Assembly (NCBI RefSeq): GCF_030013205.1
Contig: NZ_CP122648.1
Direction: 5' to 3' (one strand)
From: Escherichia coli
GTDB lineage: Bacteria > Pseudomonadota > Gammaproteobacteria > Enterobacterales > Enterobacteriaceae
DNA: 64,000 nt
This document shows, in pieces, positions 51,011 to 52,234 of the stretch (positions within the stretch are counted from its first letter, which is position 1; each line of letters begins with the position of its first letter). The notes below the pieces were generated by a model. It was not told the DNA's origin. It did not search any database and saw only the letters and a program-made list of their open reading frames with translations. A program made the translations under genes and the position numbers.

Positions 51011-52234
51011 TTACAGAAATGGTAAAGAAGGCATAATTCCCCGTGAAATACTGGCTAAGAAGCCTTTATCTGGTTGTTCTTCTTTATTGATTAAAGGAAG
51101 GTCATCCAAATCGCCCAGCAAATACGTATTTTTTGCCTGCCAGTCAATCATCCATATTTTCAGCAGTGGATAAGCCAGACCGCCCGTAATCCCGGATATC
51201 ACTACCAACGCACACATGCGATAAAGCATACCGTGGTAAGTTAAAGTTGAGCGAAAACGAATACGCCCATCATTCAGTGACAGGTTGCTCATAAAATGAT
51301 TTCGCAACGACACCGTTAAATAACTGGTGCTAACAGCAATCCCAAAATAATAGATTAACTGCGCGATTATCATTTTACGTTGCATTTCCATAAATTGCTG
51401 TAAATTCTCAATATCATCATTTGCATACACAGAACTATCATACGCATTTAATATTTGATCGAAGATAATATAACCAGCAACAGCGAGAAAAGGTAATAAA
51501 GCTAAAAATGCGAGGATGGCATATTTTATACAATACGCAGTATCTAATTTCACCTTGAAACGATGTATACCGAAACTGGTATTGCTCCAGAGAAAACTCA
51601 TTACCAGGCTATATAAAGTACCATTAAAAATACCAATGGAAACAATACCAACTATTGCCATCAGAACCACAGATATAATAACACTACTTGAACTATTGGC
51701 ATGTAGCATCTTTGTCGAGATAAAGAAAACAGTCCCCATCCCAATGGCCATTAAAATCGGCAAGAAAAAGGTTACTCACCAGAACCCTTTCATAGAGCAA
51801 TTAAAACTAAATCTTACGCCGTTGAGACTAGTCATCAAGGCCTGATAACGCAGTCCTTTTGCTGCCATAAATATAAGCAAAACCAACAGTGACAAAGTCA
51901 AAACACAGCCAATAAGCGGCATATCTGCTGACACTGTCATTAAGATTGCGAAATAGAAAAAAACAAAAACAAGACAACTAACAAAAACATTCCCACCGGT
52001 AATCCCATAAGAAAATCGTTGTCCGTTAACCTCCATATTAGCATAGAGATAACGCTTACATTTCATTAATGCCCATGGTAAATAGATACCTAGCGTTATA
52101 ATCGTTAACAACACATTCACCACACAAATAAGAAAATATCTCTCACCTGTACCATGAAAAACAAACGAATGGGACGGAACATCCATTTCATTAATAACTT
52201 GAGCCATAAAAATTCCCTGAATTAAAAAATCCAT
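51011..52234 (-). pseudogene. yjgN: yjgN (DUF898 inner-membrane protein) interrupted by an in-frame TGA at 51776-51778
   Basis: 152-aa N-terminal ORF ends ...SMKGFW-stop; the same frame continues VTFFLPILMAIGMGTVFF... for 250 aa with no ATG start. Confidence 0.75.

Follow-up and report, generated by a model that had tools for sequence, protein, structure and literature searches.

The closest described counterpart of the gene considered here is YjgN of E. coli K-12 (b4257, 398 aa), with which it shares the locus, the start, the domain and a length of 1,197 nucleotides, and from which it differs at 29 nucleotides. One of the differences is consequential: K-12 yjgN has TGG at codon 144, whereas a TGA at this codon cuts the product of our gene to 143 aa. 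Closer still are two RefSeq pseudogenes, EL389_RS28590 of E2865 and QDW55_RS22040 of ETEC4079, which exhibit 0 differences from our gene and represent the same allele. Other inactivating alleles of yjgN are likewise on record: in 99-3165 and HS-01 the gene is interrupted by IS1, and the divergent allele of Z1323CEC0015 is frameshifted. These belong to the same gene family and locus, but they arose independently of W144*, represent other types of lesion and are rarer among the matches listed. In the papers on yjgN that we consulted for its function, the gene appears only as a marker, as an entry in a list or as a knockout in a screen: yjgN::tet was used as a neutral marker linked to lptFG (PMC9544173), and the Keio yjgN knockout is viable (PMC5153853). 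One further paper (PMC4562309) uses the name 'DUF898' for the membrane part of PuuD, a urate oxidase, and we suspect that a different DUF number is meant there. We conclude, with high confidence, that the TGA is an inherited nonsense mutation (W144*), which has turned yjgN of this lineage into a pseudogene or, at best, left it severely hypomorphic.

The window, that is, the whole stretch of 64,000 nucleotides that was analysed (contig NZ_CP122648.1), is part of an E. coli chromosome with the gene order valS - yjgN - yjgM - rraB (Table 1), and yjgN is flanked by valS and yjgM in every genome inspected, so that its position is orthologous throughout. Between the convergent genes valS and yjgN lies a GC-rich hairpin with an 11-pair stem on the plus strand, a 10-pair stem on the minus strand and T-rich tails, and yjgN is the final gene on its strand ahead of it. 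The gene is AT-rich (GC 37% versus 49% for the window). Its RefSeq start is the ATG at 52207 (MAQVINE..., 398 codons), upstream of which an AGGGA Shine-Dalgarno-like motif is found; a promoter scan yielded 3 sigma-70-like sites, compared with 5.4 expected from shuffles, and we assign no promoter on this basis.

Table 1. Coordinates of the features discussed in the text, numbered from the first letter of the window.
Feature	Position	Strand	Remarks
leuX, tRNA-Leu(CAA) gene	40295-40379	-	
valS	48102-50957	+	
GC-rich hairpin between convergent valS and yjgN	50977-51002		terminator-like, both strands
yjgN, YjgN family / DUF898 inner-membrane protein, pseudogene	51011-52207	-	398 codons plus stop, broken at codon 144
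C-terminal remainder of yjgN, still an open frame	51011-51775	-	codons 145-398 plus natural stop
In-frame TGA (W144*; ancestral TGG)	51776-51778	-	T=51778, G=51777, A=51776
N-terminal remnant of yjgN	51779-52207	-	143 codons, ~3 hydrophobic segments
yjgM	52400-52903	+	
rraB	52949-53365	-	
Frameshifted, truncated 'DNA-binding protein' pseudogene and truncated yjgL	within ~54593-56996		
IS1 copy, transposase	~55457-56154		

The initial annotation had reported an in-frame TGA that splits yjgN, without change of frame, into pieces of 152 and 250 codons, and the split itself is confirmed by the minus-strand reading, the translation and the list of open reading frames. The minus strand reads ...AAA GGG TTC TGG TGA GTA ACC TTT TTC TTG CCG ATT TTA ATG GCC... 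around the stop, translation in a single frame from 52234 to 51011 gives ...SMKGFW*VTFFLPILMAIG..., and the next stop encountered in this frame is the natural end of the gene. The changed base is 51776, which is A on the coding strand and T on the plus strand. As for the sizes of the pieces, the list of open reading frames comprises 51776-52234 (152 aa from an ATG) and 51011-51763 (250 aa from a TTG). The figure of 152 codons is thus correct for the frame opened by the ATG at 52234, but the RefSeq start at 52207 makes the stop codon 144 and the likely N-terminal product 143 aa long. It had also been stated that the downstream piece is devoid of an ATG, which proved to be incorrect: the earliest in-frame starts after the TGA are the TTG at 51763-51761 and, four codons further on, an ATG at 51751-51749 (codon 153), located 12 and 24 nt past the stop, respectively. 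Gene callers do use the ATG at 51751, and the exact 246-aa product is found on at least 1,000 public contigs; products of 246 and of 250 aa are both called in public assemblies, and the exact 143-aa product is likewise present on at least 1,000 public contigs. Many public gene calls list the two pieces separately. We suggest that the open reading frames 51011-51763 and 51776-52234 be joined in the annotation and marked as a single yjgN pseudogene, and not be presented as two hypothetical membrane proteins.

Alignment with intact alleles identifies the ancestral codon. Codon 144 is TGG in all six of those compared (K-12-like CIT, O157:H7 WS4202, H1827/12, O111:H2 12A, EC11 and XJ6-3), and the window departs from them here by a single substitution, G to A, at gene position 432; a G-to-A change of a TGG codon had already been proposed from the window alone. 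The pair W143-W144 is kept at the aligned position even in a divergent class of alleles (FNCSMLRAWWV) with 42% identity, and since intact alleles including this class carry TGG there, the change is designated W144*. In both classes, an orthologue consists of one gene of 395-398 codons; a search for two separate genes at this position, which would have spoken against a nonsense mutation, therefore left that reading standing. Hence, the locus exhibits what characterizes a nonsense pseudogene, that is, an in-frame stop where orthologues have a sense codon, with homology in the same frame on both sides.

The existence of two deeply divergent classes of yjgN alleles in E. coli is an observation in its own right. 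Both are located at one locus, the adjoining valS and yjgM being nearly identical, with the window-type class being present in 4,629 genomes (at least 95% DNA identity to the window) and the divergent class in ~796 (60-80% nucleotide identity), the intact protein of the latter comprising 395 aa and being 42% identical to K-12 YjgN. Such an old allelic dimorphism is unusual. A yjgN-family gene is found at the locus in 5,425 of 5,426 genomes.

When the stop is replaced by Trp, the repaired protein yields a single match to the Pfam family DUF898 (PF05987) over residues 13-369 with 164.1 bits, well above the gathering cutoff of 28, so that the earlier assignment as a DUF898 membrane protein is upheld. 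Matched on their own, the N-terminal half covers positions 2-129 of the 336-position profile with 111.6 bits, and the C-terminal half covers positions 127-315 with 60.3 bits. The stop is thus located inside one continuous domain, at about profile position 129 of 336, and no internal duplication is seen. What appear as two pieces are the halves of a single gene and not chance open reading frames. With respect to membership in the YjgN family, the gene reaches the profile score and is devoid of the uninterrupted frame of ~395-398 codons, which the TGA at codon 144 breaks; it is a pseudogene member of the DUF898 family and not an intact one. With the stop, 64% of the protein is lost, and the 143-residue fragment spans 38% of the DUF898 domain. 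A crude hydropathy scan places ~3 of ~8 hydrophobic segments before the stop and ~5 after it, and the fragment would consequently be without most of the membrane domain.

It is then of importance how widespread the allele is. A database of 5,426 complete E. coli genomes was queried by megablast with 55-mers carrying the variant base at position 28; since megablast needs an exact 28-mer, such a query matches only genomes having that base. The TGG 55-mer was found in 4,366 and the TGA 55-mer in 237 of the 5,426 genomes (236 of them at 100% identity), the latter corresponding to a frequency of ~4% that is inflated by the heavy sequencing of STEC. The carriers comprise serotypes and pathotypes O26:H11, O111:H11, O20:H12, O141:H4 and O2:H16, many pig ETEC and others, and their sources include cattle, poultry, donkey, dog and humans. 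In all 11 carriers inspected, RefSeq/PGAP labels yjgN as 'pseudogene, internal stop', and positions 39001-64000 of the window are identical to the corresponding region of pig ETEC4079 except for one 8-bp indel at 54725. Together with the two half-proteins, both of which occur on at least 1,000 contigs, the 237 genomes establish W144* as a heritable allele. The TGA allele is thus real but ordinary, and as a pseudogene it is already in the public record. It provides a simple marker of descent for those E. coli that include O26:H11, O111:H11 and pig ETEC.

The substitution, its ancestral state, its frequency, the disruption of the domain and the absence of recoding signals are direct observations; that function is lost, what becomes of the fragment and that the change is neutral, we infer, and the following picture is worded accordingly. 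Ribosomes initiating at the ATG at 52207 would stop at codon 144 and yield a fragment of 143 residues, so that efficient translation is expected of the N-terminal remnant only. The remaining 254 codons would be left without useful translation, since an adequate ribosome-binding site is missing past the stop. Because no gene stands between yjgN and the bidirectional terminator on that strand, the premature stop can have no polar effect on other genes, and both this arrangement and the non-essential nature of yjgN would explain why the mutation was tolerated. The allele would then have been passed on by descent within a group of strains. A nearly universal protein would thus be dispensable in successful natural lineages, which places a small constraint on ideas about the role of YjgN; beyond annotation, the finding is otherwise of little importance.

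Additional changes have accumulated on the truncated allele. The carrier BS74R-D has lost the start codon (ATG to ATA, M1I), E377K is found in one O20:H12 strain, and the 143-aa fragment occurs with the variants T20A, V102F and L110I. No synonymous change is seen among ten main-haplotype carriers sequenced through yjgN. Protein-altering changes without synonymous ones are compatible with relaxed constraint, very few changes being involved: with 0-1 substitutions per 1,197 bp, the carriers differ too little for a dN/dS test. The frame downstream of the TGA is intact in all carriers inspected, and with 0-1 substitutions per 1,197 bp this intactness is uninformative on selection.

One genome, TUM9757, carries the same W144* TGA on a second haplotype, which exhibits 18 differences from the window over 1,855 bp (flanks included). 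The differences nearest to the TGA are at gene positions 415 and 569, with no distinguishing site between them. The TGA of TUM9757 resulted either from a second, independent mutation of this base from G to A or from a short recombination or conversion tract.

The near-universal presence of a yjgN-family gene (5,425 of 5,426 genomes) indicates that the gene is normally kept, and its loss may hence not be strictly neutral. It is tempting to speculate that loss of YjgN was selected, and not merely tolerated, in some E. coli niches, which would make the alleles described above a case of convergent adaptive inactivation. Compatible with such a scenario are (i) the occurrence of W144* on the ~1% divergent haplotype of TUM9757, (ii) the IS1 insertions and the frameshift in other yjgN alleles, (iii) the spread of the allele in successful livestock-associated and STEC/ETEC strains, and (iv) the otherwise near-universal distribution of the gene. 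Nonetheless, we consider selection for loss to be unlikely.

A different role for the stop codon itself would arise if it were leaky. UGA is the leakiest stop codon in E. coli, and since the lost residue is Trp, readthrough by tRNA-Trp would restore precisely the wild-type residue. Reading of the UGA by Trp-tRNA-Trp would thus rebuild exact wild-type YjgN from a codon that was ancestrally TGG, and the lineage might keep a low and useful amount of the protein. In a K-12 reporter, Trp-tRNA-Trp competing with RF2 gave readthrough of ~2% at 37 °C and ~4% at 25 °C (PMC10570021), and the downstream frame being intact in all carriers inspected is what one would expect if it were still read. The latter agreement is, however, uninformative at such low divergence, and loss of the start codon in BS74R-D argues against selection for expression. 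The high UGA leakiness of K-12 is, moreover, ascribed to Thr246 of its RF2, an unusual variant, with termination being better in natural isolates. Neither a structure beyond chance nor an Rfam recoding element is found nearby: the 76-nt segment 51715-51790 folds with z = -1.6, with 15 of 200 shuffles folding as well, and a scan of 50900-52450 for SECIS and other Rfam families gave no match near the stop at E<=10, the only matches being sub-threshold ones elsewhere, mostly at the valS/yjgN terminator. Programmed readthrough would also be expected to come with a stop conserved across orthologues and with a constrained frame downstream of it, and here the stop is present in 237 genomes versus a sense codon in 4,366. 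Rescue of YjgN by leakiness of the stop is, taken together, quite improbable, and premature termination at W144* is retained as the explanation.

Alternatively, the gene might have been split into two cooperating parts, with the 143-aa piece and a 246-250-aa piece, the latter made by re-initiation at the TTG at 51763 or the ATG at 51751, assembling to a two-piece YjgN in the membrane. Start codons do follow the stop at short distance, both halves are called as open reading frames on at least 1,000 contigs each, and the hydropathy scan puts the break at a boundary between loop and helix and not within a helix. Gene calls are mechanical, however, and are not evidence of expression. Furthermore, the sole Shine-Dalgarno-like motif available for a restart, GGTGA, overlaps the stop and is separated from the TTG by 12 nt and from the ATG by 24 nt; such spacings are too long for efficient initiation, and we do not regard the motif as a convincing restart signal. 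Considering also that DUF898 is one domain without internal duplication and that orthologues are never split, being single genes of 395-398 codons in both classes, a functional split gene is very hard to defend.

A sequencing or assembly error with TGG as the true codon, which the initial annotation had left as an alternative, would be in keeping with a difference of a single base, yet it is rejected here: 237 complete genomes, sequenced independently by many laboratories on various platforms and from various hosts, have exactly this allele, the half-proteins recur on at least 1,000 contigs each, and over 25 kb the window departs from ETEC4079 only by an 8-bp indel at another place, which makes an error extremely improbable. 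Finally, recoding as selenocysteine has in its favor only that the codon is UGA, and it can be dismissed as practically negligible, since no SECIS or other Rfam match (E<=10) and no significant hairpin follow the codon, all aligned homologues have Trp and not Cys or Sec there, and UGA is a minority derived state (237 versus 4,366 genomes); other recoding elements are rejected on the basis of the Rfam scan and the fold z-score as well.

The sequence context of the inherited nonsense mutation was also inspected for a mutational hotspot, which received no support: the mutated plus-strand C, bracketed in GGTTAC[C]CACCAGAA, is not part of a Dcm CCWGG site. The ancestral coding-strand context, TCTGGTGG (51773-51785, minus strand), exhibits a 7/8 match to Chi (GCTGGTGG), the last base of which is altered by the mutation; this near-match is probably a coincidence.

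Several other features of the window deserve mention. The next AT-rich patch (~54593-56996; GC 0.29-0.31 at 54500-55400) is also decayed, containing a frameshifted and truncated pseudogene for a 'DNA-binding protein', a truncated yjgL and a copy of IS1; the 8-bp indel with respect to ETEC4079 is a difference in repeat copies and falls inside the former pseudogene. On the other side of yjgN, a site-specific integrase gene ending at ~40204 is located immediately beyond leuX, and the adjoining of the two suggests that the first ~40 kb of the window probably constitute a leuX-inserted genomic island. Between pepA and holC (~47308-47606), BLAST self-matches reveal imperfect tandem repeats of ~96-100 bp that are 90-93% identical and probably represent a known intergenic repeat cluster.
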